A DNA stretch of 42,424 nt, taken from NCBI GenBank assembly GCA_039931815.1, contig JBDTRF010000002.1:1-42424 (forward strand), written 5' to 3'. This stretch comes from Gemmatimonadota bacterium (GTDB lineage: Bacteria; Gemmatimonadota; Gemmatimonadetes; Gemmatimonadales; GWC2-71-9). Below, in pieces: positions 19,892-39,297 of this stretch. Position numbers and translations under genes: made by a program. Under the pieces are notes generated by a model. It saw only the letters and a list, made by a program, of their open reading frames with translations. It made no database searches and was not told the DNA's origin. Numbering within the stretch: position 1 is the first letter of the stretch; each line of letters starts with the position of its first letter.

Positions 19892-19994
19892 CTGGCTTCT
19901 CTTTCTCTAGGTGGAAGTAGGACGCCTGACCGTCCCGGCCCGCACGCGATTTTCAATGACTATGGCGGGTCACCAGGTCAGGTGGCATGACTGC

Positions 19995-22386: not shown

Positions 22387-23357
22387 CGGTTCATCGCCAT
22401 GCGGGAGTTCTGGTCGGCCAGGAGTCCAACGGCGAACACGATCATGGCACCGAGAAAGAGGAGCACCGCGCTTTCGGAGAGATTATCAACGGTGACATCG
22501 TAGGCAAACTTGGCCAGGCCGGCCACGGTAAGAAATGCCGCGATCGGGATAAAGACCTTGAGCGGGTTGAAAAACACGATGGTCCGGAGAATCAGGAGCG
22601 CAAAATCATAGGCGTGCCGCGGACGGATTTTCGATTCCCCGAGGCGGGCGAGATAGTTGATCGGGATGTATTCCACCGGATGTGAGTTGCAGGCCGCCGC
22701 AAGGGTGATGGTCGTGGTAAAGGAAAACCCCTCTGGCAGGAGATGGACATACTTCTGGATCAGGTCTCGGCGCATGAGGCGGAGCCCTGAGTTGATATCC
22801 GGAAGATGCTGGCCGGCGAGGTAGCTGGCGAGCGCGCGAAGAAATGCCTTGGCCGGTCGTCGGGCCAGGGGAATCCGCACCGTCTGGCCGGTGCGCGCCC
22901 CGACGACCATCGAGTTGAACTCGGAGGCGGCGAGCAGCACCGGGATCGACTCGGTCGGATAGGTTCCGTCGGCATCGGTAATGAGGATCCAGGGATACTT
23001 CGCGGCCCGCACGCCGAGCTTGAGGGCCGAGCCGTATCCGCGATTCTTGCGACGACGCAGGATTCTCGCCCCGGTCGTGGCGGCCTGTTCAGCCGTACCA
23101 TCGGCGCTACCGTCGTCCACCACGATGATCTCGTATTCCCATCCCGACGTCTTCATCACCTTTTCCACCGCCCGGACCTGTTCGGCCACGTGGGCAGCTT
23201 CGTTGTAGGCGGGAATCACAATGGTTACGGCTCGTTCGAGCACACCCGACTGATCTTCGACTATTTCTTCAATCACAATTGACCCTGTTCGCGGAGTGTT
23301 GCATGTCGAGCGTGCATTGGGCTTTTCACCTGTCGCGTTGGATGGCTCGATCAGCAT
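22383..23357 (-). CDS. GT2 polyprenyl-phosphate glycosyltransferase (GtrB/ArnC-like, with two C-terminal TM helices)
   Basis: 324-aa ORF. Motifs: VTIVIPAYNEA, IIVVDDGSADGT, ITDADGTYP, and C-terminal hydrophobic helices. GTG 23276 is a possible alternative start. Confidence 0.8.
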   Translation of the reverse strand: MLIEPSNATGEKPNARSTCNTPRTGSIVIEEIVEDQSGVLERAVTIVIPAYNEAAHVAEQVRAVEKVMKTSGWEYEIIVVDDGSADGTAEQAATTGARILRRRKNRGYGSALKLGVRAAKYPWILITDADGTYPTESIPVLLAASEFNSMVVGARTGQTVRIPLARRPAKAFLRALASYLAGQHLPDINSGLRLMRRDLIQKYVHLLPEGFSFTTTITLAAACNSHPVEYIPINYLARLGESKIRPRHAYDFALLILRTIVFFNPLKVFIPIAAFLTVAGLAKFAYDVTVDNLSESAVLLFLGAMIVFAVGLLADQNSRMAMNR

Positions 23358-23457
23358 GCGACTGGCGCCATACGTCCCTGCTGGACCTCACCCTGCCGAA
23401 TTCGGGACCAATTTCACCGCGCGTTCCGAAACTCGCAAAGTCTTCCCCTGTTTCCTG

Positions 23458-25357: not shown

Positions 25358-27205
25358 ATGAAACCAGGGTCCGACCCAGGCGCGGAACCAGTCACGGTTA
25401 ATGTCGCCAGCCCTACAGGAGCCAGGTTCTGGATTCCGGTCGGGGTGGCGGTTTCCGCCTGGCTGACGTATGTGCTGACCCTCGAAATGCGAAACCCCCG
25501 ACTGGTCGCGTCATGGCATGGGTTCCTTCATACTGCCATCGCCAATCGGTTCCCGACGTCAGCCTGGATTCCCGAGAATCCCTTCTTTGCGGGCGAGCCT
25601 TTACGCTACTACTGGGTTTTTCACCGTGGAGCTTCCGCGCTCTCCCGAGGATTGGGGGTAGACCCCCTCTCGGCGCTCCGAATGCTCACCCTGGTCGGAT
25701 TGGTGCTCCTCGTCGGCTTCGCCTTCCTTATTGGGCGACGGGTCTGCCGTTCAACCGGCGCCGGGTTTCTCATTGGATTCCTGGCGCTTGCGGGGCTCAA
25801 CCCTTTGGGACCGGCCATCGCCATCGCACGGCACGAGACGCAGGGTCTGATCCTGCTTGAGAAGGAGGCTGGAGCCCCGTCGGTGGAGACGGTGTTTACC
25901 GGGAACGAGGCCGCCGATCAGTTCATGGGGAGGAATCTCCTGGGTGCGATGTACTTCTCCACCGACTGGAGACACGGCGAGAACATTGTCTGGTTCTTCG
26001 ATATTTCGTCGAGAGGTCTTTCCCTCGCCGCGCTGTTGGCCCTGGTCCTCCTCGTGTTACCGCCCGAACGCGGCGCGTTTCGACTGGTCCTGATTGGCGT
26101 GACCACGGCCCTGCTTGCCGCGCTCAACCCTATCGTGGGCCTGGCGAGCGCCATGATGCTCGGATTCTCCCTTCTTTTTATCGACGCGATGGATTTGCGG
26201 CGGGCAACGGGAAAATTCGGCCTCCCATCCCGATCACTCATCATGACGGTCGGGGCGCTGGCCCTGGGAGTGATTCTCGCCGTTCCGACTTTTTACCACC
26301 TCTTCGCCAGCGGCGGGGGCGGCACCTCGATCAACCCCCCGGGAGTGATCGCGATGAAGCTGGTCAACATGGGGGTCAATTTCATCGTCCTGCTTCCGCT
26401 TGCCTTGCTGTCCACCCGGGTCCAACTACCCGGCCTCACCACCATCCTTCGTGCCTTCGTGGTGACGGCAGGACTGCTCCTGATCATCATGCTCACCGTT
26501 CACCTCGAAGAAGGCAACGAGCACAACCTGACCAACACCGCCCAGGTCCTGCTGGCTCTGCCCGCCGTCGTCGCGCTCGCGTTTCAGCGGAACGGCAGGC
26601 CGCGGAGGAATCGAGCCGCCATATTCGCGGTGACAACCGCGGCCTTCCTTCCCGTGACCGCTGCCACCTGGGTCGCGTTCGATGGTCGGCCCGCGCTCCC
26701 GTTTCAGGCCGCTCATGGTGTGCTGGAACGGACCCCATCGAACGCCCCCCTTGCCGAACTCTATCGCTGGATCATGCGGGAAACCGGGCGCGATGCGGTG
26801 TTCGTCGTTGACCCCTCGGAGCCCGTGAAAATGTCCGGCAACGTGTCCGAGCTGCCGGCGTTTACCGGTCGATCACTCCTTACCGACCAGCCCAGCTATC
26901 TCACGACGCCCTACCCCGATTCCCCGAGGCGTACGGCCATCGCGTTGGCGATGGTGCACGGTGAGAAACTGACGGCCCCCGACTCGGCATATCTTTGGCG
27001 GCTGGCAAGGCCAGCTTCGCATAACGCTCGCGAGATTGACGTGATTACATATCATGCTGACCACGGTGACCTGATGGACACGCTCGAGTTGCGCTATGGA
27101 CCCGCACGATTCCACCAGGGCTTTACCGCCGTCTTCTCCTATGACTCCGGCGGCAACCGGATACATTCCGACTCAACCGGTGCAAACGGAGCTCGCGGAC
27201 AATGA
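25358..27205 (+). CDS. Polytopic membrane protein with a soluble C-terminal domain; candidate GT-C arabinosyltransferase or polymerase
   Basis: 615-aa ORF from ATG 25358 with at least 10 hydrophobic helices, directly upstream of the UbiA/DprE1/DprE2 cassette on the same strand. I recognised no family motif; the function is inferred from context. Confidence 0.45.
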   Translation: MKPGSDPGAEPVTVNVASPTGARFWIPVGVAVSAWLTYVLTLEMRNPRLVASWHGFLHTAIANRFPTSAWIPENPFFAGEPLRYYWVFHRGASALSRGLGVDPLSALRMLTLVGLVLLVGFAFLIGRRVCRSTGAGFLIGFLALAGLNPLGPAIAIARHETQGLILLEKEAGAPSVETVFTGNEAADQFMGRNLLGAMYFSTDWRHGENIVWFFDISSRGLSLAALLALVLLVLPPERGAFRLVLIGVTTALLAALNPIVGLASAMMLGFSLLFIDAMDLRRATGKFGLPSRSLIMTVGALALGVILAVPTFYHLFASGGGGTSINPPGVIAMKLVNMGVNFIVLLPLALLSTRVQLPGLTTILRAFVVTAGLLLIIMLTVHLEEGNEHNLTNTAQVLLALPAVVALAFQRNGRPRRNRAAIFAVTTAAFLPVTAATWVAFDGRPALPFQAAHGVLERTPSNAPLAELYRWIMRETGRDAVFVVDPSEPVKMSGNVSELPAFTGRSLLTDQPSYLTTPYPDSPRRTAIALAMVHGEKLTAPDSAYLWRLARPASHNAREIDVITYHADHGDLMDTLELRYGPARFHQGFTAVFSYDSGGNRIHSDSTGANGARGQ

Positions 27206-27281
27206 TTCGGCAACCAACGACCGCGGGAAATGAGAACGAAGTTCTTCCCCGGCGGGGTCGCGGAAGAGCGCGTTTCCCGGC

Positions 27282-28148
27282 GTGGCCTGGTTCCGGGAGA
27301 TTCGGCCCCATCAATGGGCCAAGAATTTTCTCATCTTCCTCCCTGCCATGGCGGCCCACCTGCAGTGGAACCGGGAGCAGCTGACGGATCTCCTGGCCGG
27401 GTTCATTGCCTTTTCGTTCCTCGCCTCCGCGGTCTATGTCGTCAACGACCTGGTCGACCTGCCCAACGACCGGCAACACGCCACCAAGCGCAACCGGCCC
27501 ATCGCCGCGGGGCTGATCTCTCCACCGGCAGCCATCGCAGGGGCTGCGGTCCTTGTGGTCATATCGGCAGTGGCTGCGCTGCAGCTTCCCCGTATTTTTC
27601 AACTGACACTCCTGGTCTACCTGGCGATTACCACCGCGTACTCGTTCGCGCTCAAACGGCGCGTCCTGCTGGATGTGATCTGCCTGGCGGGGCTGTATAC
27701 CATTCGCGTCGTCGCCGGCTCCACCCTGGTGGATGCCCCGCTGTCCCAGTGGTTCCTCGCCTTTTCCATCTTTTTCTTCTTTGCGCTGGCACTGGTGAAG
27801 CGAGTCGCCGAACTCCGGCCATTGCTGTCGGAACCGGGTCAGGTCGTCGCCGGACGGGGCTATGCTGCGCCGGACGTGCCGATGCTGACATCCCTCGGTA
27901 CCGGTGCGTCGATGGCAAGCGCGCTGGTGTATTGCCTCTACATCACCAGCACCGAGGTCACCAGACTCTATCATCACCCGAAACTGCTCTGGATCGGCCT
28001 GCCGCTGTTCCTGTACTGGATCACCCGCGTCTGGCTGCTGACGGCACGAGGGAGAATGAACGAGGATCCAGTGGTATTCGCCCTGCGGGATCGCATGAGC
28101 TACCTCATCGCTTTCGGGTTCCTGGTGACCATCTGGCTCGCGGCATGA
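27282..28148 (+). CDS. UbiA-family prenyltransferase, decaprenyl-phosphate phosphoribosyltransferase-like
   Basis: 288-aa ORF with a GTG start. Motifs: IRPHQWAKN and an Asp-rich VVNDLVDLPNDRQH, on a polytopic protein. Its stop overlaps the next ATG (ATGA at 28145-28148). Confidence 0.8.
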   Translation: MAWFREIRPHQWAKNFLIFLPAMAAHLQWNREQLTDLLAGFIAFSFLASAVYVVNDLVDLPNDRQHATKRNRPIAAGLISPPAAIAGAAVLVVISAVAALQLPRIFQLTLLVYLAITTAYSFALKRRVLLDVICLAGLYTIRVVAGSTLVDAPLSQWFLAFSIFFFFALALVKRVAELRPLLSEPGQVVAGRGYAAPDVPMLTSLGTGASMASALVYCLYITSTEVTRLYHHPKLLWIGLPLFLYWITRVWLLTARGRMNEDPVVFALRDRMSYLIAFGFLVTIWLAA

Positions 28149-29509
28149 ATGGAACTCTTCCCCCCCAGCAGATTTCCGGCTGGGGACGATATCCCACCGG
28201 CACCAGCCAACTGGCCCGACCCGAACAGGTTCGAGGTATCACGGACCTGGTGGGCGCCCATCGCTATGTCATCGCGCGCGGCCTCGGCCGGAGTTATGGC
28301 GACGCCGCCATCAATGAAGCCGGCGTCACCCTGCTGCTCGAACGCTTCAACCGGTTTCTCAGCTTTGATTCGGCCACCGGGATGGTTCGCTGTGAAGCGG
28401 GAGTCACCATCGCCGATCTGCTGACCCATTTTCTTCCCCGCGGATTTTTTCCCCCGGTGACACCCGGCACCAGGTTCGTGACCCTGGGCGGGGCTCTCGC
28501 CGCCGATGTGCACGGTAAGAATCATCATAAGGATGGATCCTTCTCGCGCCACGTCGAAGAGTTCAATCTGCTCACGGCCGAGGGCGGGATACTTCGGTGC
28601 AGCCGGCAGGAGAACGCCGACGTGTTCTGGGCTACAATGGGAGGCATGGGCCTCACCGGAATCGTGACCGAGATCAGCTTTCGAATGAAGCGGGTGGAAA
28701 GTGCCTACGTCTCTGTGGACTACGACCAGGCACCCAATCTCGACGCCGCGCTCGCGCTCTTCGAAAATTCGGACCAGGGTTACACCCACTCCGTGGCATG
28801 GATCGACTGCCTCGCCCGCGGGCGGAACCTTGGGCGGAGCGTACTCATGCGCGGCAACTGGGCGACGCCATCCAAACTTCACCGGCGGCAGGCCGAGAAT
28901 CCGCATGCGCTGCCCCCAGCCAGGGGCCTTGGCGTTCCCTTTGACGCACCCCGGTTCTTACTCAACCCCGCCAGCGTCCGGCTATTTAACTCCGCCTTCT
29001 ATCATCGGCACCGCACTCGGCACGATGTGGTCGTGCCGTATGAGCCGTTTTTCTATCCCCTCGACAAGATCCGGCATTGGAATCGGTTGTATGGCAACCG
29101 CGGCTTCCTTCAGTATCAATGCGTCCTTCCCCTCGGCTCCAGTCGGGATGGGATGATCCGGATGCTGGAACTGCTCTCCTCCGAAGGACACGCCTCGTTT
29201 CTCGCGGTGCTCAAACGATTCGGTGAAACCGAAGGCGAACAGCTGCTGTCTTTTCCCCGACCCGGCTATACCCTGGCGGTCGATCTCCCCCGGAATGGCG
29301 AGCGACAGGACCGGTTGCTCAAGGAACTGGACCAGGTGGTCCTGAAGGCAGGAGGCCGCGTGTACCTGGCCAAGGATGCCCGGCTCTCCAGCGAGAGTTT
29401 CCAGGCGATGTACCCCGAATTGCCCCGCTGGCTCGCCATCAAGCGTCGGGTTGATCCGAACCGACGATTCACTTCCTCGCTCTCGCGCCGCCTGGGGCTC
29501 GACGGATGA
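28145..29509 (+). CDS. dprE1: FAD-linked oxidase, DprE1-like (polyprenylphosphoryl-beta-D-ribose 2'-oxidase)
   Basis: Internal ATG 28145 of track ORF 27230-29509, whose 5' part is an out-of-frame overlap of the UbiA gene. Collinear with remembered M. tuberculosis DprE1: ISGWGRYP, ARGLGRSYGD, PGTRFVTLGGALAADVHGKNHH, FWATMGGMGLTGI, FLQYQ and RVYLAKDARL. Confidence 0.85.
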   Translation: MNGTLPPQQISGWGRYPTGTSQLARPEQVRGITDLVGAHRYVIARGLGRSYGDAAINEAGVTLLLERFNRFLSFDSATGMVRCEAGVTIADLLTHFLPRGFFPPVTPGTRFVTLGGALAADVHGKNHHKDGSFSRHVEEFNLLTAEGGILRCSRQENADVFWATMGGMGLTGIVTEISFRMKRVESAYVSVDYDQAPNLDAALALFENSDQGYTHSVAWIDCLARGRNLGRSVLMRGNWATPSKLHRRQAENPHALPPARGLGVPFDAPRFLLNPASVRLFNSAFYHRHRTRHDVVVPYEPFFYPLDKIRHWNRLYGNRGFLQYQCVLPLGSSRDGMIRMLELLSSEGHASFLAVLKRFGETEGEQLLSFPRPGYTLAVDLPRNGERQDRLLKELDQVVLKAGGRVYLAKDARLSSESFQAMYPELPRWLAIKRRVDPNRRFTSSLSRRLGLDG

Positions 29510-30270
29510 TCGTCATCCCCAGGAGCAATCACGGCACCGTGCTCATCGCCGGTGCGACATCCAGCATTGCCCGAGGCGTCGCGGCCGGGTTCGCCCGCCG
29601 GGGATATGATCTCTGCCTGGCCGGCCGGGACCTGGACGAAGTGCGGCGGGTGGCCAGCGATATTGCCGTTCGGCACCAGGTGAACGTCAGTGCCGTCCGC
29701 TTCGAGGCCAGCGACGCGGCATCACATGCTGGAGTGCTGGAACGACTGATGGACGAGGGAAGCGCCGAACTGGTTGGGGCCGTGCTCTGTTTCGGCGTCC
29801 TTGGGGAACAGTCTGTCGCCGAGAGTGATTTTCCCTACGCCCGGGAGATCATTGCCGTCAATTTTATGGCGGCGGTGGCGCTGCTGACACCGCTCGGGAC
29901 TTATTTCCACGCACGAAAACGCGGCTTTATCGGTGCGATCGCCTCCGTGGCCGGCGATCGCGGCCGCCAGAGCAACTATGTCTACGGTGCCGCCAAGGGC
30001 GGACTGGCTATTTTTCTCCAGGGCATGCGGCAGCGGCTGGCCAAGCATGGCGTGAGCGTGACAACGATCAAGCCCGGCTTCGTGGATACGAAGATGACCT
30101 TCGGCCTGCCGGGAATGTTCCTGGTTGCCAGGCCCGAGGACGTCGGAGAGGCGATTGTGGCCGCGGTCTTGAAGGGTCGAACGGTGGCCTACATTCCCGG
30201 CTTCTGGAAATGGATCATGCTCATTATCAAATCGATCCCGGAACACGTCTTTGTGAAACTGAAATTGTAA
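29506..30270 (+). CDS. dprE2: Short-chain dehydrogenase/reductase, DprE2-like
   Basis: 254-aa ORF whose ATG overlaps the upstream stop (ATGA). Motifs: LIAGATSSIARG and a YxxxK in YVYGAAKGG. The position after the DprE1-like gene matches the epimerase pair. Confidence 0.75.
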   Translation: MIVIPRSNHGTVLIAGATSSIARGVAAGFARRGYDLCLAGRDLDEVRRVASDIAVRHQVNVSAVRFEASDAASHAGVLERLMDEGSAELVGAVLCFGVLGEQSVAESDFPYAREIIAVNFMAAVALLTPLGTYFHARKRGFIGAIASVAGDRGRQSNYVYGAAKGGLAIFLQGMRQRLAKHGVSVTTIKPGFVDTKMTFGLPGMFLVARPEDVGEAIVAAVLKGRTVAYIPGFWKWIMLIIKSIPEHVFVKLKL

Positions 30271-30397
30271 GTCAGATGGTGACGATTACCCGGTGACAGT
30301 GACTCGAGACGGGTAGGAGGTGAAAAGGGCGCGATCAGAGATTGCCTTTTGTAGTTAAGCGACCCAGACACGATCCCTCTGCATTCGCTCGTCCTGG

Positions 30398-31132
30398 TTA
30401 CGGGTCGCGCTTGTTGTATTTCGCAAACGTCCTGAATCCAATAAACCAATCCCGCATTCCGATCTTCTTGCCCTCGGCCTTACTCCGGGGAAAATACCTG
30501 ATCGGCACTTCCCTGATGGTGCACCCGCGAGCCAGGATCCGGGCGGTGATTTCATGATCCAGTTCGAACCCCGACGTTTCCAGGGGAAGGGCCTTGATCA
30601 GATTCGACCGGAAGAGCTTCAACGCCGTAACCGTATCCGACAGGTAGGAACCAGTGAAGAAAAGCGCGATGAAACTGAGGCTCTGTCCGCCGAGATAGGC
30701 CATCAGGCCCTGGTTCGCATGCTTCCCGGTGACCAGGTTCGCCAGCTTTCCCTTGTCCGGGTACTTCATGTAGCGGCTCCCGTACACCGCGTCGACGCCC
30801 GGCTCCTGCAGCTTTCTGAACATGGGGATATAGTCCGCCGGGTCATACTCCAGGTCTGCGTCCTGGATGATGAGATACTCACCGGTCGCTAACGCGATCC
30901 CGGCGCGAACCGCAGCCCCCTTCCCCGCGTTGACCGGCTGATTGTGCAGCCGAACCTGGGGAAAGCCCGCCACCACGCCAGCCGTCCCATCCCTGGAACA
31001 GTCATTCACCACGATGATTTCTTTCTCGAGCCCGAGGGCAGACAGGTCGAGCCGGATAATACGCTCCAGCAGGGTCCCGATGAATCGCTCTTCGTTGTAT
31101 GCCGGAATAATGATCGAGAGGGTTTCTGGCAT
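30398..31132 (-). CDS. GT2 glycosyltransferase (DPM1-like soluble catalytic domain)
   Basis: 244-aa ORF. Motifs: LSIIIPAYNEE, IIVVNDCSRDGT and IIQDADLEYDP. Confidence 0.8.
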   Translation of the reverse strand: MPETLSIIIPAYNEERFIGTLLERIIRLDLSALGLEKEIIVVNDCSRDGTAGVVAGFPQVRLHNQPVNAGKGAAVRAGIALATGEYLIIQDADLEYDPADYIPMFRKLQEPGVDAVYGSRYMKYPDKGKLANLVTGKHANQGLMAYLGGQSLSFIALFFTGSYLSDTVTALKLFRSNLIKALPLETSGFELDHEITARILARGCTIREVPIRYFPRSKAEGKKIGMRDWFIGFRTFAKYNKRDP

Positions 31133-31246
31133 CAGATGTTACCCGGTGAAAAGACAGGTGCCAGGCCAACGGCTACAGCAGGAACGAAAAGGGGAGAAAT
31201 GGAATTACCTGGCACCCGGGATGAAGGGGGGCCTGGTGGCCAGTAT

Positions 31247-31996
31247 TCAGCGAGAGCCCGAGCCGAGATACTGGGACACTTTCTCCAGCTCCTCTTCCGT
31301 ATTAATGCCAATCGCTTCGATCGGCGCAGTGGCCCGAATGGTTCGCACCGAACCTCGCGACGCCAGCCATGGAATGAATGGCAGGAAGTTCCGTTCGCCG
31401 GTCAACCGCCCGAGTGGCGCCGCCTCCGCGTACTGGGGAAGCAAGTCGAGGTACGTCGCGGCCGTCAGGGCGAACAGTCCAATATCCCCTTCGCCATGTT
31501 CCGGCATGGTGTCGCCCTCCCGCCGGTGTAGAACCTCTGCAATCCCCCCGTCCGGATGGCGGGCAAAGTGAATGTAGGGCGCGCCAAGAATCACGGTAGG
31601 AAGTCCCAGCGCCGGTATCCGTGCGGTTCCCATCAGGCTGGCGAGGCGTCGAACTGTCTCGGATTCAACCGCCACCTGGTCACACCAGGTGATCCACACT
31701 TCGTCGGGATGGAGTTGCCGAACCCGCTCACACGGGATCAGAATGGCATCCAGCATCCCCGTTGGAGACTCCTGGACGAGGATTTCAATCTTTTCCTCTC
31801 GGCCCTTGAGGTGGGATCGCACCGCCGATTCGGCTCCTGGGCTTACGACCAGGAGAAAGACCGATGCCACGTCGCGATAGCGCTGGAAGAGGTAGTCAAT
31901 CATGGGACGGCCGTTGACCGGCACCAGGAGCTTGGGAAGGTTCGATCCCAGTCGCGAGCCGCGGCCGGCGGCCGGAATGACGATGATCCGGTTCAT
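31247..31996 (-). CDS. Nucleotidyltransferase family protein (sugar- or hydroxyacid-phosphate NTP transferase fold)
   Basis: 249-aa ORF with the N-terminal motif IIVIPAAGRGSRLGSNLPKLLVPVNGRPMI. Its ATG overlaps the upstream stop (ATGA). Confidence 0.75.
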   Translation of the reverse strand: MNRIIVIPAAGRGSRLGSNLPKLLVPVNGRPMIDYLFQRYRDVASVFLLVVSPGAESAVRSHLKGREEKIEILVQESPTGMLDAILIPCERVRQLHPDEVWITWCDQVAVESETVRRLASLMGTARIPALGLPTVILGAPYIHFARHPDGGIAEVLHRREGDTMPEHGEGDIGLFALTAATYLDLLPQYAEAAPLGRLTGERNFLPFIPWLASRGSVRTIRATAPIEAIGINTEEELEKVSQYLGSGSR

Positions 31997-32658
31997 CGGC
32001 GTTTTGCCGCGTCCGACGTTATCGCCGCGAGCATCATGTTCAGGTCGGGAAAGGCGCCGATAAACCTGGCATGGTCGATGGTTTCACCCGTCCGCACTGA
32101 CGCCGTCGCCGCCCCCGCGGCGTCCCCAGCCTGGAGGCCTGCGGCACTGTCTTCCACGACCAGGCTTCGTTCCGGTCGGCCATTCGCCAACCTGATGGCT
32201 CGTGCGTACGTCTCCGGATTCGGCTTCCCCTCGAGAACGTCATCTGCCGTTACCATGACTGGAAGCAATGGCGCGAGCCCGGTCTGGTTCAGCAACATGG
32301 TCGCGGTCTGCCGTGAGGCACCCGTTCCCAATGCCAGCTGGTAACCCTGCCGGGAAAGCGCCTGGAGAACGGGCAACGCATCCGGAAACGCGGCGGTGGT
32401 GCGCAAGTACTCCCGCGCGCGTTCCTGCTTATACCGCGTCCAGCTTTCGATCTGGGGGCGGGATGGCTTGCTGGCGGCGGTGAATTCCCGAACGACAGAC
32501 TCGGTCGAACGCCCTGCGATTGCTGGATAGGCGGGAGGATGAGTGACCCCCGCGAATGACCAGAGATCGGCGAAAGCGCGCGCGTGACACCCCGAACTAT
32601 CGGTGAGAACGCCGTCCATGTCGAAGACGATGAGATCGAATCGGCCGACCCGGTTCAC
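31993..32658 (-). CDS. HAD-superfamily hydrolase (beta-phosphoglucomutase/phosphatase-like)
   Basis: 221-aa ORF whose GTG start overlaps the upstream stop (GTGA). It has the DxDxT/V motif (LIVFDMDGVLTDS) and a later VVEDSAAG. Confidence 0.8.
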   Translation of the reverse strand: MNRVGRFDLIVFDMDGVLTDSSGCHARAFADLWSFAGVTHPPAYPAIAGRSTESVVREFTAASKPSRPQIESWTRYKQERAREYLRTTAAFPDALPVLQALSRQGYQLALGTGASRQTATMLLNQTGLAPLLPVMVTADDVLEGKPNPETYARAIRLANGRPERSLVVEDSAAGLQAGDAAGAATASVRTGETIDHARFIGAFPDLNMMLAAITSDAAKRR

Positions 32659-34721
32659 TTGTGGCTGGTCGCGGTTTCGGTACCGAACATGTCGGCAGGT
32701 CCGGATTCAACCATGCCTTCCAGCACCGATGGAGTGCCGCGGGAAGACAGGCGCCGCCAGCGGCCGGCCAGGATGGTCATCAGCGAGCGAAGGCCTTCCA
32801 TGACCGTGGTCCGGCGGATTTTCTGAGGCGAGATCGGGAAGTAATACACTGGCGTCTCGAACACTTCGGCCCGCTGGCGAAGCAGATTGGAAAGGACCTG
32901 CTGATTGAAATCTCGTCGCCGATAGTCCAGGGACGCATCCCGCAACAGCGAGGATCGAATCACCTTGACGCCGGAGAGAGTATCCGAAATGTACCGCCCG
33001 TACAGCGACAGGTATGCGAGGCTCAGCACCTGACTCCCGACATAGCTCACCGCCGCCTTTATTCGCTTGTGACGGTATACCAGCCGATAGGCCTGCTTGA
33101 TATCATTGACGGAAAGGCGCCGACTGCCCCATACGGCGTCCAGCCGCTCACCAGTCAGATGTGATGCGAGATTGACGATATCGTCACCCCGGTACATCCC
33201 CGACGATTCAAAGAGCATGACGTAGTCGAAATGCGGGTCATGGGCGACCCGGGTAAAGGCGTCCGCGCTGCTCGATCCCTGGGTCGAAAGGTTCCGGACA
33301 CCAAACGGCAGCGAGGCCACGAATTCCGGGGAGAACGATTCGGGGCTTTCATAGAAGACCGTAAGCAGGAGCGGGTATGATTCAATGCCCGCCCTGACCA
33401 TTTCGACGATCGATTCCGCCACCTTGTTGAGCGATTCCGCGTCCACCAGGAGCACCGCCAGCCTGGTTCTCTCCCCTCGACGGAGCAGCGCCTTGATAAA
33501 CGGGGTGAGCACCTTGGTCGCATCGTGCCGGCCGCTCACGCCTTCCTCATAGTTCCCGATTCGCACCAGGCGCGGATCTTCCAGGGTGTCCAGGTGGCCC
33601 AGCGGCACATAGGAGCGCGACTCGGCCATACCCGGCTCATTCAGCACATAGTGGGTGATGAGACAGGGAGTGGGAAGCGCAAGCCGATCCTTCTCGCGGA
33701 GATAAAAGAGCGCCTTGTTGATCAGGTCAACGGCGCTGTTCCCGCTGATCTCGGCGTCCTCCTGGAGGTTAGTGATCAGCACCTTGACGGCTTTGAGATT
33801 CTGGGCGATCGCGGCGCCTATGCCGGGCGTCAAATACGACGGGAACAGGCTGGAATGCTGGGTGCCAGGCGCGTAGACGATGAGGTCCGCCTGGGCAATT
33901 TTCGCGAGCAATCGAGGGTTAGGGGCGAGAGTGACCGCGCGCGCATTGAGATAGGATGCAAGACCAGTCCGACCCGCCCGGACGATGTCCTGTCGTTCCT
34001 CGTCGTTCAGGAGGCGATCCAGCAGGTACAGGTCCTTGATGTTCTGGGGCTTTTCCGCCGTGACAATTTCAGCTTCGGTGGCGAGCAGCCGATCGTGCTG
34101 GTCAACGGCCACGAGGCAGGCATTGCGCCCATCCGTGACGTTCTCAATCATGCCGGCCGGGATGCCGAGCAGCGAACAGTAGTCGCCAACGGCCTCATTG
34201 AATTGCCGACCCACATGGAGGAAGCATCCGGCAAAAACCAGGTTGCCGAGGCTGCAATCGGCAAAGCGGAATTCTCGCCCGGACGCCTCAGCCTCGAAGC
34301 AATCCAGCCGAATCGCCAACGCAGCCTTCAGCCGGCGATCCAGACCGGACACCAGTGCGCTGAGTTCACGCTGGAAATCGTCCTGGGAGGGAACGCCCGA
34401 TTCACGGACCAGGCGGAAGGCCTGGCTCGCCTCGGCGATGGTATAGCTGTCCGGCATTCTGAGATCCAGCATCGCGACCAGGCGCTCATCGCAGGTACGC
34501 AGTTTCGACGCGAGGCGAGAGGCATTCTTTCTGAAGTCGGATGGTCCCAGGCAGTCGCCCAGAAATCGGCGAACCTCGCCAGTCGAGAGCCCGTCGTCGT
34601 ATCCGTTGATGGCAAGGGTGAGCGCAACCCGGTCACCCTTGATCAGTTCAGCGGAGAGCACACTGGAGCCCCGGCCACCGGTAAAGAGGACGACCTGGAC
34701 CTGCGCGTTGGGGTCAGTCAT
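32655..34721 (-). CDS. Fusion protein: N-terminal CofD/YvcK-like (UPF0052) domain plus C-terminal GT-A/GT2-like domain
   Basis: Track ORF 32655-34790 has a TTG start; it is trimmed to ATG 34721 (MTDPNAQVQVVLFTGGRGSS). The N-terminal domain matches remembered YvcK: GG.G.SVL...L..(I/L)T.(A/I)(I/V)...DDG.S.G..R and ADLIVYAPGTQHSSLFPSYLTPGI. The C-terminal roughly 250 aa are GT2-like (GSRR, SDTLSGVK). Confidence 0.7.
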   Translation of the reverse strand: MTDPNAQVQVVLFTGGRGSSVLSAELIKGDRVALTLAINGYDDGLSTGEVRRFLGDCLGPSDFRKNASRLASKLRTCDERLVAMLDLRMPDSYTIAEASQAFRLVRESGVPSQDDFQRELSALVSGLDRRLKAALAIRLDCFEAEASGREFRFADCSLGNLVFAGCFLHVGRQFNEAVGDYCSLLGIPAGMIENVTDGRNACLVAVDQHDRLLATEAEIVTAEKPQNIKDLYLLDRLLNDEERQDIVRAGRTGLASYLNARAVTLAPNPRLLAKIAQADLIVYAPGTQHSSLFPSYLTPGIGAAIAQNLKAVKVLITNLQEDAEISGNSAVDLINKALFYLREKDRLALPTPCLITHYVLNEPGMAESRSYVPLGHLDTLEDPRLVRIGNYEEGVSGRHDATKVLTPFIKALLRRGERTRLAVLLVDAESLNKVAESIVEMVRAGIESYPLLLTVFYESPESFSPEFVASLPFGVRNLSTQGSSSADAFTRVAHDPHFDYVMLFESSGMYRGDDIVNLASHLTGERLDAVWGSRRLSVNDIKQAYRLVYRHKRIKAAVSYVGSQVLSLAYLSLYGRYISDTLSGVKVIRSSLLRDASLDYRRRDFNQQVLSNLLRQRAEVFETPVYYFPISPQKIRRTTVMEGLRSLMTILAGRWRRLSSRGTPSVLEGMVESGPADMFGTETATSHK

Positions 34722-34734
34722 GGCCGAAAGGAGT

Positions 34735-36003
34735 TCATGCTGATGCAAGCTGACGGAACAGAAAATCCCGGCGGAACCAGAGAAATCCAAGGTAGGCGAG
34801 AAGCGGTCCCGCTTTGAGAATGCTCACGATCAACAGTCCCGCAAAACTGGAGACCGGGAGATGGTCACGGACATACAGCACCAGGACCAGGTTCTGCAGC
34901 ACGCATAGCCCAAGGATGATGCCGAGGTGCGCCCGCTCGGCGAACTTCATCCGGGGAAACAGGGCCACGAGAAAAGAAAGCGGGATGAAGAGCACCGCGA
35001 GATAGTGCTCCCAGACCACCTGGGAAATCAGCAGGCAGAACGACACGGACAGGAGATACCAGAACAGGCGACGTCGGTCCGCGGTCCATTCCTGTCCCAG
35101 GCTTTGCGCGCCCAGAAAAACAAATGTGCCGAGTACCATGAGCTTCATGATGGTTCGAAGAAAATCAGGGAACCAGCCTCCGGAGCGCGGGACGGGAATT
35201 GAATGGGCCCGGTTCCGGAAAGCATCCGCCACAATGTATAGCGAGCTGTTGAACGGCCAGGGCGACGGTTTGCCGCTCCCTCGACGGAGGATCTCCAGGA
35301 ACTCACGATGAATCGGCCAGCCCAGCAGGAGTATCGAGACTGCGGCGGTGGTTAGAAAGACCGTCGCCAGCGCCAGAAAGAATCGCCGTCCCGACACCAG
35401 GCCCAGAAACGCGGGTACAAAAAGGAAAGCGGGCTTGACCAGCACCACGAAGAGCATACAGATCGCTGCGGCCCAGATCCGGTCACGGAGATAACACATC
35501 AGCCCCAGGACCAGGAGAAGAAACACGATCGGCGTCGTCTGACCACCGACGCGATAAATCGTCCAGAAGGGCTGATAGAGGAGAATCAGCAGCGCGAAAA
35601 CAGGGGCAAACCAGAACGAAGTCGGTCCGTTCTGGCTGGCGAATGGCAGCATTTCCCGGTAAAGGAGAAGGAGGCCAGCGGCGAAGGCAAGCGAGGCGAC
35701 GAGTTTGAGAAGGATGAGTGCGACGTGCGGCGGGAACAGGCTCAAGGGGGCGTAGAACCAGGCCGAAATCGGCGCGCCCCAGAAGGACATCTGCCCCTGG
35801 GGCGAGCCGCCGCCTATGAGCGCTGAGGGATTGTAGATGTCCTGCAGCTGACCCGCGGCGGCTCGCCGGCCCGTGTCATAGAAATTCGCGAAGTCCCACC
35901 CGCGCCCCGCCGGAATGAGTACCGCGGCAATTGCCGCCAGGACAATCAGGGCGAGCAATACCCGCAGAAGAACTCGCTGAGCGCGGGCCGGATCATTCGC
36001 CAT
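34735..36003 (-). CDS. GT87/DUF2029-like polytopic glycosyltransferase (PimE-type, polyprenyl-phosphate-sugar dependent)
   Basis: 422-aa polytopic ORF. The N-terminal loop WDFANFYDTGRRAAAG resembles the D..(F/Y)Y.AG motif of the DUF2029 family. Confidence 0.6.
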   Translation of the reverse strand: MANDPARAQRVLLRVLLALIVLAAIAAVLIPAGRGWDFANFYDTGRRAAAGQLQDIYNPSALIGGGSPQGQMSFWGAPISAWFYAPLSLFPPHVALILLKLVASLAFAAGLLLLYREMLPFASQNGPTSFWFAPVFALLILLYQPFWTIYRVGGQTTPIVFLLLVLGLMCYLRDRIWAAAICMLFVVLVKPAFLFVPAFLGLVSGRRFFLALATVFLTTAAVSILLLGWPIHREFLEILRRGSGKPSPWPFNSSLYIVADAFRNRAHSIPVPRSGGWFPDFLRTIMKLMVLGTFVFLGAQSLGQEWTADRRRLFWYLLSVSFCLLISQVVWEHYLAVLFIPLSFLVALFPRMKFAERAHLGIILGLCVLQNLVLVLYVRDHLPVSSFAGLLIVSILKAGPLLAYLGFLWFRRDFLFRQLASA

Positions 36004-36053
36004 GGATTGACGCGCGCCCTTTCGGCGCCGGACCGCAAGTTGAAAACCGTCGC

Positions 36054-36221
36054 TTAGACGGCGGTGTCCTTACGTTTGGAAAAGAGGGAACCGATCCGCT
36101 TGAAGAAACTGACGACATGGCGCCAGAAGATCAGGAGCGCCCCACCGATGGCACCCAGAATCGAGGTCAACGGGAGAATCTGATCCGGCCCGACATACAG
36201 CAAATTGATGAGATGCAACAT
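36054..36221 (-). CDS. Small (55-aa) single-pass membrane protein, unknown function
   Basis: ATG 36221 with an upstream GAAAGG. Sequence: MLHLINLLYVGPDQILPLTSILGAIGGALLIFWRHVVSFFKRIGSLFSKRKDTAV. It has one hydrophobic helix and a basic tail, and lies between the flippase and GT87 genes. Confidence 0.4.
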   Translation of the reverse strand: MLHLINLLYVGPDQILPLTSILGAIGGALLIFWRHVVSFFKRIGSLFSKRKDTAV

Positions 36222-36518
36222 CGGATAAAACCTTTCTGAGCGGAGGCAGTTCGTTCGGAATCGAGCCGACAAGGCCACGCCATTCGAGCGTCATGTTCAG
36301 GTCGGGACTAGAATCGCCAAAGCAGGGTGTGCGGGAAGGACCGGTAACATCAGCCTTGGCTAGCAACCCCTATGCCAGCAACAACATAGTACATACTTTC
36401 TCAACGCCGAGGCCTAGGGAGAGGCGGAGCCTTAAGATGGGTCCTCGGGCAGCGAAACGCCATTCCAGAAAGCCACCCTGGAGTGTGGCGTCCACCCTAC
36501 ACCCACGACATCGCCGCG

Positions 36519-37937
36519 TCACACTGACAGGGCGGGCAAGCTCCCCCGGCTCACCCTGATCCCGCCGACCAAGACCAGGAGGAGGAGATACGCGGCCGTC
36601 CCCGCTATAAGGGAAGGCCAGAGTCCGCGGGAGCCAACCAGATACACGACCAGTCCCATTCCCCCGCCAGCGACCAGGGTTCTCCAAAGTCGCCCAAATC
36701 GCGGCAGATGAAATCCTTCCTTTCTCGCGAATACCAGGGCGAGTCCGGTCCGGACGATTTCGGTACCGAGCGTTGCGGCTGCCGCTCCCACCATGCCATA
36801 CGCTGGTATGATCAAAATGTTGAGGGCCAGGTTGAGCATCGCTGAGACGAACGTGATGCGAAGGACACGATCCTGTCGCCCCGCGGAAATCAGGGCCATC
36901 TGGGGGACGTTTCGATAGAATGCGACCGGTATGGTCCAGATCAGGATCTGCAGGGCGATGACCGAGCGTTCATACCCGGGACCGAAGACGAAGCCAATAA
37001 TTCCCGGGGCGAGAAGATATCCCCCGACGGCGAGCGGAAACGATGCCGCAAACACCTGCGCCATTGCGGTCTGATAGAGAGCTTGCTGCCGGGGAGGCTC
37101 CCCCGCCAGGCGGGTCAGCGTCGGCAGCAGGCTCTGGCTATAAGCGATACCCAGGTTCAGCAGAAAGCTGATGAGCGTATACGCCGCGACGTAGTGCCCC
37201 ACGTCCGCGGCGGTCTGAAAAGCCCGCAGAAATATCAGGTCCGAATTGTAGATCATCAGTCCCAGCAACGCGTGCAGGACCAGGGGAAACGCCCGGTGAA
37301 AGACCGGGCCGGCCGATCGCCAGTCCCACCGGAGGTTGAGCGACACACCGCGGCGGCGCAGCCAGATGGCGAGCAGGCTCATGGCCAGCATGTCGCCGGT
37401 AAACTGGGCCAGCGGCACCCGGGCAATGTCTCCCGCGGAACGAACCAGCAGGACGACCAGGAGGACCATCGTGGATTCCCCGGCAATTCGGGCCAGGGCT
37501 ACCCGGGATGCGTCTTCCAGTCCAATGTGAATCCACCGGGTGTTGGCGGCAACGCCAAGGAGGGTGAGGCCATAGACCGCGAGGATGGCGCCGTCCGGTT
37601 GGGGCATGAAAAGAAGGCCCGCGACAGCGACGGCGACAGCAAGTATGGCGGCAACGGCCAGGCGGAGGGTGAGAACCGCTGGCGCCAGGGTCTGGACGCG
37701 GCGGTGATCGGCGGCGATCTCCCGCACTCCCAGCGTCTCGATGCCGCAATCAGCGAGATAGGTGAAATAGAGGAGGACAGCCGTTGCGAGGCCGATGACG
37801 CCGTAGGACCCGGCACCCAGGGTGCGCGCCAGGTAGACCGTCGCGCCGAATGCCACCAGCCGGGCGACGGCTTCGCCGGCCCCCAGCGCGAGGAAGTTTC
37901 GGCCTACGGTTCGGTCGGAATCGTGGGTCACGACCAC
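36519..37937 (-). CDS. Oligosaccharide/polysaccharide flippase (MOP superfamily, Wzx-like)
   Basis: 472-aa ORF with a GTG start and about 12-14 TM helices. The N-terminus NFLALGAGEAVARLVAFGATVYLARTLG is typical of polysaccharide-biosynthesis flippases. Confidence 0.75.
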   Translation of the reverse strand: MVVTHDSDRTVGRNFLALGAGEAVARLVAFGATVYLARTLGAGSYGVIGLATAVLLYFTYLADCGIETLGVREIAADHRRVQTLAPAVLTLRLAVAAILAVAVAVAGLLFMPQPDGAILAVYGLTLLGVAANTRWIHIGLEDASRVALARIAGESTMVLLVVLLVRSAGDIARVPLAQFTGDMLAMSLLAIWLRRRGVSLNLRWDWRSAGPVFHRAFPLVLHALLGLMIYNSDLIFLRAFQTAADVGHYVAAYTLISFLLNLGIAYSQSLLPTLTRLAGEPPRQQALYQTAMAQVFAASFPLAVGGYLLAPGIIGFVFGPGYERSVIALQILIWTIPVAFYRNVPQMALISAGRQDRVLRITFVSAMLNLALNILIIPAYGMVGAAAATLGTEIVRTGLALVFARKEGFHLPRFGRLWRTLVAGGGMGLVVYLVGSRGLWPSLIAGTAAYLLLLVLVGGIRVSRGSLPALSV

Positions 37938-37986
37938 AATCTAGCGATGAGGGGAGCGTTCATGCGTCGTTGGTCTATTTCTCCGG

Positions 37987-39297
37987 GTGGGTCTGCTCGG
38001 CCTGGCCGGCGCGGAATGCCGGGGCGGTCGGAGCGAGGACGCGACCATCCGGGTCGATGTCGCCGTCAGCTACCAGACGATCTCAGGTTGGGAAGCGTCG
38101 GAATCCTTCGCCTGGCGGAGTCCCAAAGCAGCCATGGATTCCCTGATGTCGGTCACGGTGAACGACCTTAGCATCAACCGGCTCAGGCTCTCGTTTCCCG
38201 GCAACATGGTGGAAAGCAGGGACACGGTGACCATGCCCAATGAACTGCGCGAAGGCACCAATGACAACGCCGATCCCCATGTGCTGAACCCGGCGGGTTT
38301 CCGCTGGGAGCTGGAGGACTACCTGGTGGAGACCTTTGTCCTGCCGATGAAACGGCGGGTCGAAGCCCGGGGCGAGCCGTTCATCCTGACCGCGACCTAC
38401 GTCGGGTCCCGGACAACTTCCCAGTATCAGCAGAAGGATTCGGCGGAATACAACGAGTTCATGCTGGCGGTACTCGATCACCTGAAGACGAAATACGGAA
38501 TCGTACCGGACATATGGGAGATTCGGCTGGAGCCGGATCACGGCCGGAATCAGATGACCCCGCGGCAGCAGGGGATTCTCCTGGCAGGCGCCGGGGCCGC
38601 GGTGCGGGCCGCCGGCTATGACAAGCTCACGTTCAGCGTGCCCTCCACCGCGGTTCCCCACCGCACGGTCCAGTATCTCCAGGGCATTCTCTCATCACCG
38701 GGAACTGCGGAGTACATCGGCGAGATCGGCTTTCACCAGTACTCCGCTCCTTCGAGCGAAATGCTGACCGGTATTCGCGACGCGGCGATGAAACTGGGAG
38801 TTCCCACCGGAATGATGGAATACAACAAGGGCACCGAACGCGAGCTGTACCAGGACCTGACGCCGGCGAATGTCTCGGTGTGGTCCCGCTTTTCGCTGGC
38901 CGGCAATGTCGGCGGGCCGGATGTCGGCGGCCAGTACTTCTACGTGGACGTTCCCGATTCCAGCTTCCGGTACCGACCCTCGACCTGGCCGCTCCGGCAA
39001 TACTTCAAGTATGTTCGCCCCGGGTACGTCCGGGTGGCGGCCAAGGCCGACGACGACCGGGTTCAACCGACCGCCTTCCGCCGTCCGGATGGCGGCGTCA
39101 TTGTGGTCGCCAACCTGGCGGATTCGGCGACGACTCGGGTGAGAGGACTTCCGGCTGGGCGCTACTTGGTCACTTGGGCGAGCACTGCGGGGCGGGGAGA
39201 TCCGGGCCCACCGGTGACGGTCGGGCGAGGTGGCATTCTTACCATGTCAATCCCGAGGGCAGCCACCGTGACCGTGTCTCCGGCGGATGAACGGTAG
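37987..39297 (+). CDS. Glycoside hydrolase, GH30-like (TIM barrel plus C-terminal beta-sandwich)
   Basis: 436-aa ORF starting at the first in-frame canonical start, GTG 37987. Features: IRVDVAVSYQTISGWEAS at the N-terminus, WEIRLEPD as a candidate acid/base strand, GMMEYN as a candidate nucleophile strand, and a C-terminal AFRRPDGGVIVVANL pattern. The start and signal peptide are problematic (see findings). Confidence 0.5.
   Translation: MGLLGLAGAECRGGRSEDATIRVDVAVSYQTISGWEASESFAWRSPKAAMDSLMSVTVNDLSINRLRLSFPGNMVESRDTVTMPNELREGTNDNADPHVLNPAGFRWELEDYLVETFVLPMKRRVEARGEPFILTATYVGSRTTSQYQQKDSAEYNEFMLAVLDHLKTKYGIVPDIWEIRLEPDHGRNQMTPRQQGILLAGAGAAVRAAGYDKLTFSVPSTAVPHRTVQYLQGILSSPGTAEYIGEIGFHQYSAPSSEMLTGIRDAAMKLGVPTGMMEYNKGTERELYQDLTPANVSVWSRFSLAGNVGGPDVGGQYFYVDVPDSSFRYRPSTWPLRQYFKYVRPGYVRVAAKADDDRVQPTAFRRPDGGVIVVANLADSATTRVRGLPAGRYLVTWASTAGRGDPGPPVTVGRGGILTMSIPRAATVTVSPADER

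Follow-up and report, generated by a model that had tools for sequence, protein, structure and literature searches.

Here, we describe a gene module in a 42,424-nucleotide stretch of Gemmatimonadota DNA (contig JBDTRF010000002.1, positions 1 to 42,424; hereafter the window), at the centre of which lies a 688-aa protein that joins a YvcK/CofD (UPF0052) domain to a degenerate GT-A glycosyltransferase domain. The reading of this module as a pathway for a lipid-linked sugar donor is well supported by comparative genomics. The account that we favour goes further and is tentative: the fusion protein may be the signature component of a cytoplasmic module supplying a polyprenyl phosphate-linked sugar to a periplasmic GT-C glycosyltransferase, with its YvcK/CofD domain performing a CofD-type transfer. 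The module is widespread but unstudied; we found no publication on a YvcK/CofD::GT-A fusion, in agreement with the initial annotation of this locus, which had not recognised the arrangement as a characterised one.

The module genes all lie on the minus strand (table 1) and are transcribed in the order Wzx/MOP flippase, GT87 glycosyltransferase, 688-aa fusion, HAD hydrolase, nucleotidyltransferase (NTase) and a free, canonical family 2 glycosyltransferase (GT2). The ATG of the fusion at 34721 lies 13 nt beyond the GT87 stop, and an alternative, longer start (TTG at 34790) would run into the preceding gene. What speaks for the ATG is that more than 100 homologues measure 660-716 aa and align end to end. 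At its other end, the fusion stop overlaps the HAD start (aaGTGAacc, 32655-32658), and the HAD stop in turn overlaps the NTase start (cgATGAacc, 31993-31996). HAD is translationally coupled on both sides, and both overlaps are as first annotated. A frameshift, or two separate genes behind the 688-aa reading frame, is ruled out by the recurrence of the full-length architecture in hundreds of independent contigs, which upholds the original call of a single gene. No transmembrane (TM) segment is predicted in any of the four cytoplasmic proteins (fusion, HAD, NTase and free GT2). A promoter and terminator scan of 30000-38200 returned counts at chance level and was uninformative.

The initial annotation had assigned the N-terminal domain to the CofD/YvcK family on two hallmark regions, and this assignment is borne out. 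Residues 13-52 carry the first, FTGGRGSSVL...LAINGYDDGLSTGEVRR, and residues 278-301 the second, ADLIVYAPGTQHSSLFPSYLTPGI; Pfam CofD (PF01933) matches residues 10-344 with 67.3 bits against a cut-off of 30 (E 1.7e-18), the only Pfam match of the fusion. The domain is nearer to YvcK/GlmR than to CofD. In an AlphaFold2 model built from 32 homologues (mean predicted local distance difference test score, pLDDT, 72.5), the best Foldseek match is YvcK of B. halodurans (2o2z; E 2e-10, TM-score on target 0.69), whereas CofD/FbiA structures (3c3d, 6uw7) are reached only at about 1e-4 (CofD 1.2e-4). Sequence and profile matches in the PDB are to YvcK/UPF0052 proteins only, aligned in three motif blocks. 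NCBIfam returns TIGR04357 ('GAK system CofD-like') at 74 bits against a cut-off of 340 and TIGR01826 (YvcK) at 55.4 bits against 196, with no CofD equivalog among the matches of the fusion at E<=0.01.

Across 114 diverse relatives (25-56% identity), 19 positions of the N-terminal domain are invariant, including D42, S46, R51, D62, R64, K65, E216 and D322. D42 forms a pair with D43, itself conserved in at least 90% of these relatives; the two are the counterparts of GlmR D40/D41, mutation of which together with N198 lowers uridylyltransferase activity approximately 100-fold (PMC10128056). Also conserved is N318, the counterpart of Asn217, which in B. halodurans YvcK is a ligand of the dinucleotide bound there (PMC5482804). 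Relative to YvcK, the domain carries a helical insertion of about 65 residues at positions ~75-150, and its phosphate loop reads GGRG, with an arginine (R17) in place of B. halodurans Thr13. Residues 346-414 are highly conserved (THY, Y371, DPRL, G.H), and among them are some of the best-conserved positions in the whole family. Residues 336-416 (81 aa), used as a query against the PDB, gave no match, so that Tyr264 and Arg300 of B. halodurans YvcK (GlmR Tyr265/Arg301), which like Thr13 and Asn217 are UDP-sugar ligands, could not be aligned. Within this region pLDDT falls below 50 at residues 349-367 and 381-400, and residues 349-400 (33522-33675 of the window) have no detectable PDB sequence match; they may fold only on binding of a ligand or partner.

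The C-terminal domain had been described as GT2-like, which is right at the level of fold and paralogy but not at that of the Pfam family or the catalytic motifs. Foldseek places residues ~415-655 of the model on ArnC (9asc, 1.7e-6), DPMS (5mm1, 2.9e-5) and GtrB (9nyf, 3.7e-5), with values ranging to 4e-5. The domain and the neighbouring free GT2 (244 aa) are paralogues: they are 27% identical over 131 residues in BLASTP (E 1e-16) and match at family level in hhalign (99.1%, E 1.4e-18 over 199 columns). Pfam GT2 gives no match at E<=0.01, and the sole signal from sequence models is a weak NCBIfam AglJ match (2.5e-4, residues 478-634). Residue roles were mapped by aligning the free GT2 to PfDPMS, for which they have been published (PMC5526996). 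The nucleotide/base-binding aspartate (PfDPMS Asp39; VVNDCS replaced by YESPES), the DXD(Q) metal/diphosphate site (Asp89/Asp91/Gln93; QDADLEY replaced by FESSGMY) and the A-loop arginine (Arg202; PRS replaced by PIS) are all absent. The domain retains the GSR arginine (WGSRR), the counterpart of PfDPMS Arg117, which is a ligand of the phosphate group of dolichyl phosphate (PMC5526996), as well as the downstream SDT aspartate. FESSGMY and WGSRR are each at least 97% conserved in 85 sequences, which argues for a functional site that has been remodelled, not one that is decaying or drifting. A normal GT2 is rejected for the window lineage, given the missing Pfam match and the loss of DXD, base-binding aspartate and A-loop arginine. 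Four motif classes of the fused GT-A domain can be told apart across family representatives: canonical with DAD (class 1); FPSDGEY, Pfam GT2 positive and with one aspartate kept (class 2); FESSGMY, the window type (class 3); and LTGDGEYR (class 4). The fused copy has degenerated in some lineages.

The free GT2 is, by its sequence, the likely active paralogue of the fused domain. It matches NCBIfam AglJ (4.9e-21 over residues 6-238) and PfDPMS in the PDB (5mlz; 1.2e-12 over residues 5-225, with DAD aligned), and over nearly its full length it resembles AglJ, Dol-P-hexose transferases and PpgS, below every NCBIfam equivalog cut-off. With an intact DAD and no predicted TM segment (the GtrB-like GT2 at 22383-23357 has two), it is a putative polyprenyl-phosphate sugar synthase. 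The NTase is covered over residues 3-243 by NCBIfam GlmU models, its PDB matches are GlmU structures, and no CofC-family match occurs among its Pfam, NCBIfam and PDB hits. It had been proposed to activate a phospho-sugar or a phospho-hydroxyacid; the first half of this proposal fares better, a sugar-1-phosphate being the likelier substrate because the GlmU likeness is full-length and no CofC-family match is found. The resulting nucleoside diphosphate (NDP)-sugar would be supplied to the free GT2. HAD scores 109.6 bits with TIGR02009 (cut-off 153) and 84.7 bits with NF053653 (cut-off 245), and matches 3dv9 (2.5e-19) and 3qu2 (1e-15) in the PDB. These matches place it in the beta-phosphoglucomutase/sugar-phosphatase/BT2127-pyrophosphatase subfamily, with phosphatase, mutase and pyrophosphatase as its possible activities. 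Since it is frequently fused to the NTase, we assign it to the precursor branch or to a role in drawing the NTase reaction forward.

Upstream of the fusion, GT87 is the probable user of the lipid-linked donor. By analogy with Gtr, Arn and pentofuranose systems (PMC11127046), such a GT-C would spend the lipid-linked sugar outside the cytoplasm. The Wzx protein is a possible flippase for the lipid-linked product, although its membership of the module is uncertain: it occupies the same position in four related loci (L007, L012, L014 and L018), and was found in only 1/62 close loci at the threshold used. A synthase-like GT2 and a GT-C (GT87) are adjacent, with a candidate flippase conserved among the closest relatives only.

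In a pattern scan of 185,579 species genomes, 310 contained a relative. Gemmatimonadota metagenome-assembled genomes (MAGs) supply the closest relatives (77-78% identity). Neighbourhoods were analysed in the best 80 loci of the 310 genomes, all 80 from MAGs; these are mainly Gemmatimonadales and Acidobacteriota, with single Eisenbacteria, Nitrospirales and Calditrichaceae and a few proteobacterial MAGs. Partners within 10 kb were counted in 62 non-redundant close loci whose flanks each extend for 2.5 kb or more. The NTase is present in 62/62 and the free GT2 in 60/62, HAD in 23/62 and GT87 in 21/62; HAD and GT87 occur together in 19/62, such that GT87 co-varies with HAD, while DprE1/DprE2/UbiA accompany the module in 1/62. 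One Vicinamibacterales locus without GT87 has instead a PA14 + PMT_2 GT-C protein adjoining the module. For the more distant clade with class 2 domains, 80 metagenome loci were analysed, 35 of them with usable flanks: HAD and the NTase are each found in 34/35, a separate canonical GT2 in 33/35, and true HAD::NTase fusions in 12/35. The retention of all three partners in this clade indicates that the possession of two GT-A domains is an old and general feature of the module. Of 13 class 2 loci, 11 have large polytopic membrane proteins no more than 8 kb away, and 6/10 of those tested gave weak PMT or PMT_2 matches; among relatives in general, the GT-C neighbours are of GT87, DUF2298 or PMT_2 type.

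Natural fusions extend this picture. An exhaustive HMMER search with the N-terminal domain returned 1,425 cluster representatives (50% identity clusters) at E<=1e-3. Where architectures of N-domain relatives were classified by phmmer and mafft, 87 representatives are CofD::GT2, 52 are CofD alone (some of them fragments), five are NTase::CofD::GT2, one is NTase::CofD, one is HAD::NTase::CofD::GT2 (P0227, 1148 aa) and four have other architectures. GT87::CofD-GT fusions (P0047 and P0071) and NTase::GT2 fusions also exist among relatives. The initial annotation had grouped HAD, NTase and fusion as a trio working together. The neighbourhood counts and the single polypeptide that unites HAD, NTase, CofD and GT2 support this grouping, but the conserved unit is larger, since the free GT2 and a nearby GT-C, here the upstream GT87, also belong to it.

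At least one cultured carrier exists, Synoicihabitans lomoniglobus (locus L167), in which the module sits in a lipopolysaccharide (LPS)/O-antigen region as an operon of B12-radical-SAM enzyme, methyltransferase, HAD, NTase, CofD::GT2 and GT2. Genes like the first two (L167 6073-8530) also occur among L087-L166 and in some of L041-L082. The methyltransferase, an S-adenosylmethionine (SAM)-dependent protein of about 315 aa, is orthologous across loci and present in 12/17 class 2 and 8/54 window-type loci; the B12-binding radical-SAM enzyme, of about 505 aa, occurs in 4/17 class 2 loci, and its best NCBIfam matches, to P-methyltransferases (Sden_1168, PhpK) and HpnJ, are far below cut-off (130 bits against 575). 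Both genes are absent from the window; in lineages that have them, they suggest that the product is methylated. The methyltransferase of the distant loci (L167 7571-8530) matches the 'DVU_1556 family methyltransferase' model (E 9e-14), and a weak match (E 3.7e-4) links the NTase of the window to the 'DVU_1551 family NTP transferase' model. The two model names are neighbouring locus tags, and a related gene cluster may exist.

Table 1. Positions of the module genes, of the parts of the fusion protein and of two neighbouring sets of glycan genes in the window.
Feature	Position	Strand	Basis or remark
Wzx/MOP-family flippase	36519-37937	-	Pfam Polysacc_synt 86 bits
GT87-type GT-C membrane glycosyltransferase	34735-36003	-	Pfam GT87 40.8 bits, cut-off 25; 10 predicted TM segments
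688-aa CofD/YvcK::GT-A fusion	32655-34721	-	open reading frame (ORF) from ATG at 34721
Fusion N-terminal domain, residues 1-345	33687-34721	-	YvcK/CofD (UPF0052) fold, all YvcK motifs
Fusion residues 346-414, end of YvcK-like domain and linker	33480-33686	-	conservation profile; low model confidence
Fusion C-terminal domain, residues 415-655, degenerate GT-A of polyprenyl-phosphate glycosyltransferase type	32757-33479	-	Foldseek, hhalign, motif table
HAD-IA hydrolase	31993-32658	-	Pfam HAD_2 and Hydrolase
NTase, like GlmU N-terminal (sugar-1-phosphate uridylyltransferase) domain	31247-31996	-	Pfam NTP_transf_3 60 bits
Free canonical GT2, 244 aa	30398-31132	-	Pfam GT2 106.7 bits; 114-nt gap after NTase
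DprE2	29506-30270	+	NF053786 182 bits, cut-off 250
DprE1	~28220-29509	+	NF053785 474 bits, cut-off 500
UbiA	27282-28148	+	NF006088 373 bits; decaprenyl-phosphate phosphoribosyltransferase model 156 bits
DUF2298-like GT-C	25358-27205	+	
PMT_2 GT-C	23458-25125	-	
GtrB/AglJ-like GT2	22383-23357	-	two C-terminal TM segments
Flippase-like LPG_synthase_TM protein	21412-22386	-	
Amine-oxidase/GLF-like flavoprotein	19995-21479	-	
IolG/GFO-like dehydrogenase	18839-19891	-	

The pathway that we propose would run as follows. HAD and the GlmU-like NTase would convert a sugar phosphate to an NDP-sugar, from which the TM-less, DPMS/AglJ-like free GT2 would load the sugar onto polyprenyl phosphate. The YvcK/CofD domain, with its full set of active-site residues, would be kept at the membrane and the lipid-phosphate head group by the fused GT-A domain, which in the window lineage would have lost donor and metal binding while keeping the lipid-phosphate arginine. 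There it would move a beta-phosphoryl group, together with its substituent, from a nucleotide-activated donor to an acceptor, with nucleoside monophosphate (NMP) leaving. The acceptor would be the lipid-linked intermediate, and the donor would in this way be decorated or extended through a phosphodiester or diphosphate bond before flipping. The lipid-linked product would then cross the membrane by flipping and serve the GT-C, here of GT87 type, as donor. In this respect the proposal departs from the initial annotation, in which the growing glycan was the direct acceptor; a polyprenyl phosphate-linked intermediate for a periplasmic GT-C is the likelier one. Two kinds of precedent exist: the CofD reaction is established transferase chemistry within the CofD/YvcK superfamily, and ArnD acts on undecaprenyl phosphate (Und-P)-linked Ara4FN, so that a lipid-linked sugar is modified in the cytoplasm ahead of its flipping. 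Since the operon already encodes a GlmU-type NTase and a dedicated NTase is always present, another such activity would be redundant. The presence of this dedicated enzyme, the fusion to a GT-A domain of lipid-phosphate type (and in some genomes to the GT-C) and the invariant charged residues are the reasons for which we favour a CofD-type, NMP-releasing transfer onto a lipid-linked intermediate, and we consider this the most economical assignment of the single step performed by the YvcK/CofD domain.

Several points weigh against this assignment. To our knowledge, no YvcK protein has been reported as a phospho-group transferase, and the N-terminal domain has the YvcK motif set and lies nearer to YvcK/GlmR than to CofD by Foldseek (2e-10 against 1.2e-4). 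The NTase::GT2 fusions suggest that the free GT2 receives the NDP-sugar, which need not go to the CofD-like domain. In most of the wider family (class 2), the fused GT-A has the look of a competent catalyst, and its role may therefore be catalysis instead of lipid presentation. The low-confidence segment of the model at residues 349-400 adds to this, as do the weak PMT or PMT_2 matches on which the GT-C label of many neighbouring membrane proteins rests. Furthermore, YvcK proteins are reported either as binders of uridine diphosphate (UDP)-sugars and regulators (PMC5482804, PMC7525490) or as accessory uridylyltransferases (PMC10128056).

The first of these reported roles leads to the main rival, drawn by analogy with the proposal for B. 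subtilis GlmR (PMC7525490): a scaffold or NDP-sugar sensor. The fusion would then be a regulatory pseudo-enzyme whose YvcK-like domain merely binds an NDP-sugar, while its degenerate GT-A domain hetero-oligomerises with the free GT2; the fusion would tether, stabilise or feedback-regulate the GT2 and couple it to the GT-C. We give this a real, if minority, chance of being correct. GlmR binds UDP-N-acetylglucosamine (UDP-GlcNAc) and UDP-glucose and works through protein-protein contacts (PMC5482804, PMC7525490); the YvcK ligand residue Asn217 is kept as N318, and donor-binding residues are lost from the C-terminal domain. Moreover, the free GT2 has no TM anchor of its own, and a GT87 fusion would anchor the complex. 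A scaffold sits less easily with the very strong conservation of charged residues of the kind found in catalytic sites, among them the DD pair that GlmR needs for catalysis, with the fusion of the N-terminal domain to metabolic enzymes (NTase, HAD) in single polypeptides, or with stand-alone CofD-like and NTase::CofD proteins that have no GT-A domain at all. The uridylyltransferase reports would instead fit a role upstream, on a soluble precursor, in which the CofD-like domain would be a second, GlmR-like NTase, or a phosphotransferase making a sugar-1-phosphate or bisphosphate that HAD would then trim and the NTase activate. GlmR orthologues are reported to make UDP-GlcNAc from uridine triphosphate (UTP) and GlcNAc-1-phosphate (PMC10128056). 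The HAD::NTase fusions, too, suggest a precursor-supply branch. The order kinase, phosphatase, NTase is familiar from NDP-heptose synthesis. This role is nevertheless quite improbable, as it is redundant with the always-adjacent dedicated NTase and leaves the obligatory fusion to a lipid-type GT-A or to GT87 unexplained; we also know of no kinase activity described for the YvcK/CofD fold.

The remaining alternatives take the CofD likeness more literally. The domain could be a new phosphoglycosyl transferase, attacking an NDP-sugar with polyprenyl phosphate presented by the GT-A to give polyprenyl diphosphate-sugar and NMP, after which GT2s would extend the product and Wzx would flip it. The chemistry would be that of CofD (attack on the beta-phosphate, with NMP leaving), the lipid-phosphate arginine is kept in the C-terminal domain, a flippase of Wzx type is encoded upstream, both in the window and in the four loci named above, and neither Bac_transf nor Glycos_transf_4 is matched in Pfam scans of 37 window ORFs. 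We consider it improbable all the same: along almost all of their length, the two GT-A domains resemble polyprenyl-monophosphate glycosyltransferases, not enzymes acting in this way on undecaprenyl diphosphate-linked glycans; the associated GT-C types normally use polyprenyl phosphate-linked monosaccharides; and classical phosphoglycosyl transferases are found near some relatives. The broader claim, that the YvcK/CofD fold is a catalytic, membrane-peripheral transferase of sugar-phosphate or phospho-substituents onto polyprenyl phosphate or its sugar derivatives, and hence a third, soluble phosphoglycosyl-type class with GT-A as lipid-phosphate adaptor, has a slim chance of being correct. A strict analogue of CofC/CofD is likewise improbable. 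Here the NTase would activate a phospho-hydroxyacid or phospho-alcohol (of lactate, glycerate or glycerol type) and the CofD-like domain would attach it as a phosphodiester substituent. In its favour, NTase::CofD fusions exist, and the methyltransferase (12/17) and B12-radical-SAM enzyme (4/17) of distant loci have their best matches in P- and C-methyltransferase families; enzymes of the Fom1/Fom3 kind act on small nucleotide-activated phospho(no) compounds. Against this, the NTase matches GlmU-type enzymes over residues 3-243 with no CofC-family match, the radical-SAM scores are far under their cut-offs, and neither accessory gene is in the window. A genuine F420 CofD sitting by chance in a glycan locus is effectively refuted, even though CofD is the only Pfam family that the fusion matches. 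There is no NCBIfam CofD equivalog (TIGR04357 and YvcK score best, both below cut-off), the motifs are of YvcK type, the CofC, CofE, CofG and CofH families are unmatched in the Pfam scans of 37 window ORFs, and the gene is always embedded in NTase/GT2/GT-C contexts.

Other glycan genes surround the module. Divergent from the free GT2 is an apparent polyprenyl-phosphate arabinofuranose branch (25358-30270, plus strand), in which UbiA matches positions 194-480 of the 482-position NF006088 model, without the N-terminal ~190 residues of the model. No dedicated phosphoribose phosphatase for the UbiA-DprE1-DprE2 branch is evident. HAD was considered for this step because UbiA lacks these N-terminal residues, but is rejected as having it for a primary role, since it accompanies the CofD module in loci that lack DprE. 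A second, classical-looking set for lipid-linked glycosylation occupies 18839-25125 on the minus strand, and the block in its entirety keeps synteny with the CofD module in several Gemmatimonadales MAGs (L005, L008, L010, L013 and L085). Further away, a sulfotransferase (Sulfotransfer_3, E 3.5e-35; 11058-12026, minus strand) keeps company with GT2 and epimerase genes, a hint that the glycan may be sulfated, and near it are an AMP-binding acyl-activating enzyme (9341-10909) and an acyl-CoA dehydrogenase (2526-3677), both on the plus strand. Two large adjacent proteins of 908 and 847 aa (3782-9084, plus strand) have only weak C-terminal GDSL-lipase-like matches; together with a further GDSL-like protein of 384 aa (39357-40511, minus strand), they are candidate O-acyl esterases or transferases of the glycan. 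A flavin-dependent tryptophan-halogenase-like protein (Trp_halogenase, E 5.5e-33; 774-2183, minus strand) is found at the edge of the glycan locus.

In Firmicutes and mycobacteria, YvcK/GlmR/CuvA proteins are important for virulence and for the integrity of the cell wall, and their activity is disputed between UDP-sugar sensor and accessory uridylyltransferase. The module ties a YvcK-type domain, through repeated fusions, to nucleotide-sugar synthesis, polyprenyl-phosphate glycosyltransferases and a GT-C, and does so in several phyla, on the scale of 1,400 or more cluster representatives (50% identity). Among the carriers, Acidobacteriota, Gemmatimonadota and Verrucomicrobiota are abundant in soil, and little is known of their envelope glycans. 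The module would add an unrecognised component to lipid-linked extracytoplasmic glycosylation; were the domain a catalytic soluble transferase, this would offer a biochemical rationale for the long-debated role of YvcK/GlmR/CuvA in cell-envelope homeostasis. The function of the module is approachable in vitro: its soluble proteins are small and four in number, and at least one carrier has been cultured.

Comparison with known systems highlights both similarities and differences. The N-terminal domain has the fold of YvcK/GlmR (2o2z, 2hzb and 2ppv; B. subtilis and L. monocytogenes among the sources) and its motifs GGxG, DDGxSxGxxR, GPSDxRK (compared with PPGDxRN), xLGNL, GPGxxxSSxxP and xN, with the catalytic DD pair and Asn217 also conserved. 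It differs from YvcK/GlmR in falling far below the TIGR01826 cut-off, in its insertion of ~65 residues and GGRG loop, and in the fused GT-A. YvcK/GlmR belongs to Firmicutes and Actinobacteria, whereas the fusion occurs in Gemmatimonadota, Acidobacteriota, Verrucomicrobiota and others. Context differs as well: yvcK is seemingly always associated with yvcJ (PMC7525490) in a yvcJ-yvcK-whiA arrangement, whereas the fusion lies among NTase, GT2 and GT-C genes, and no yvcJ (rapZ-like) gene was called in the window or beside the fusion in L001-L006. With CofD/FbiA (LPPG:Fo 2-phospho-L-lactate transferase, which works with the NTase CofC/FbiD) the fusion shares the PF01933 superfamily and the pairing with an NTase, including NTase::CofD fusions; it differs in having no equivalog match, a GlmU-like partner, a context of lipid-linked glycan synthesis and, in the scans of the window ORFs, no CofC/FbiD, CofE or CofG/H. 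With scores below the cut-offs and a different synteny, the fusion stands outside the CofD and YvcK equivalog families.

The C-terminal domain shares with PfDPMS, GtrB and ArnC the GT-A fold with its interface-helix region, the GSR arginine and the downstream aspartate, and differs from them in having no DXD, base-binding aspartate, A-loop arginine, TM helices or Pfam GT2 match. A looser analogy can be drawn with the phosphodiester logic of IPCT/DIPPS, in which an NTase is followed by an NMP-releasing phosphotransferase and then a phosphatase. The module may hold the same trio of activities, including NTase::transferase fusions, although the IPCT/DIPPS transferase is an integral-membrane CDP-alcohol phosphotransferase and the candidate here has a YvcK/CofD fold. 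At the level of the whole module, the likeness is to three-component periplasmic glycosylation systems, namely GtrA/B/V, ArnC/E/F/T, CsbB/GtcA/YfhO and the pentofuranose system (Kelly et al. 2024, PMC11127046), with which it shares a DPMS/GtrB/ArnC-like GT2, a GT-C and a candidate flippase. The described systems have no reported YvcK/CofD-type component, and the GT2 of the module, unlike theirs, has no TM anchor. To judge from its genes, what would be new here is a three-component-like system with an obligatory YvcK/CofD::GT-A protein and precursor enzymes of its own, an NTase and usually HAD.

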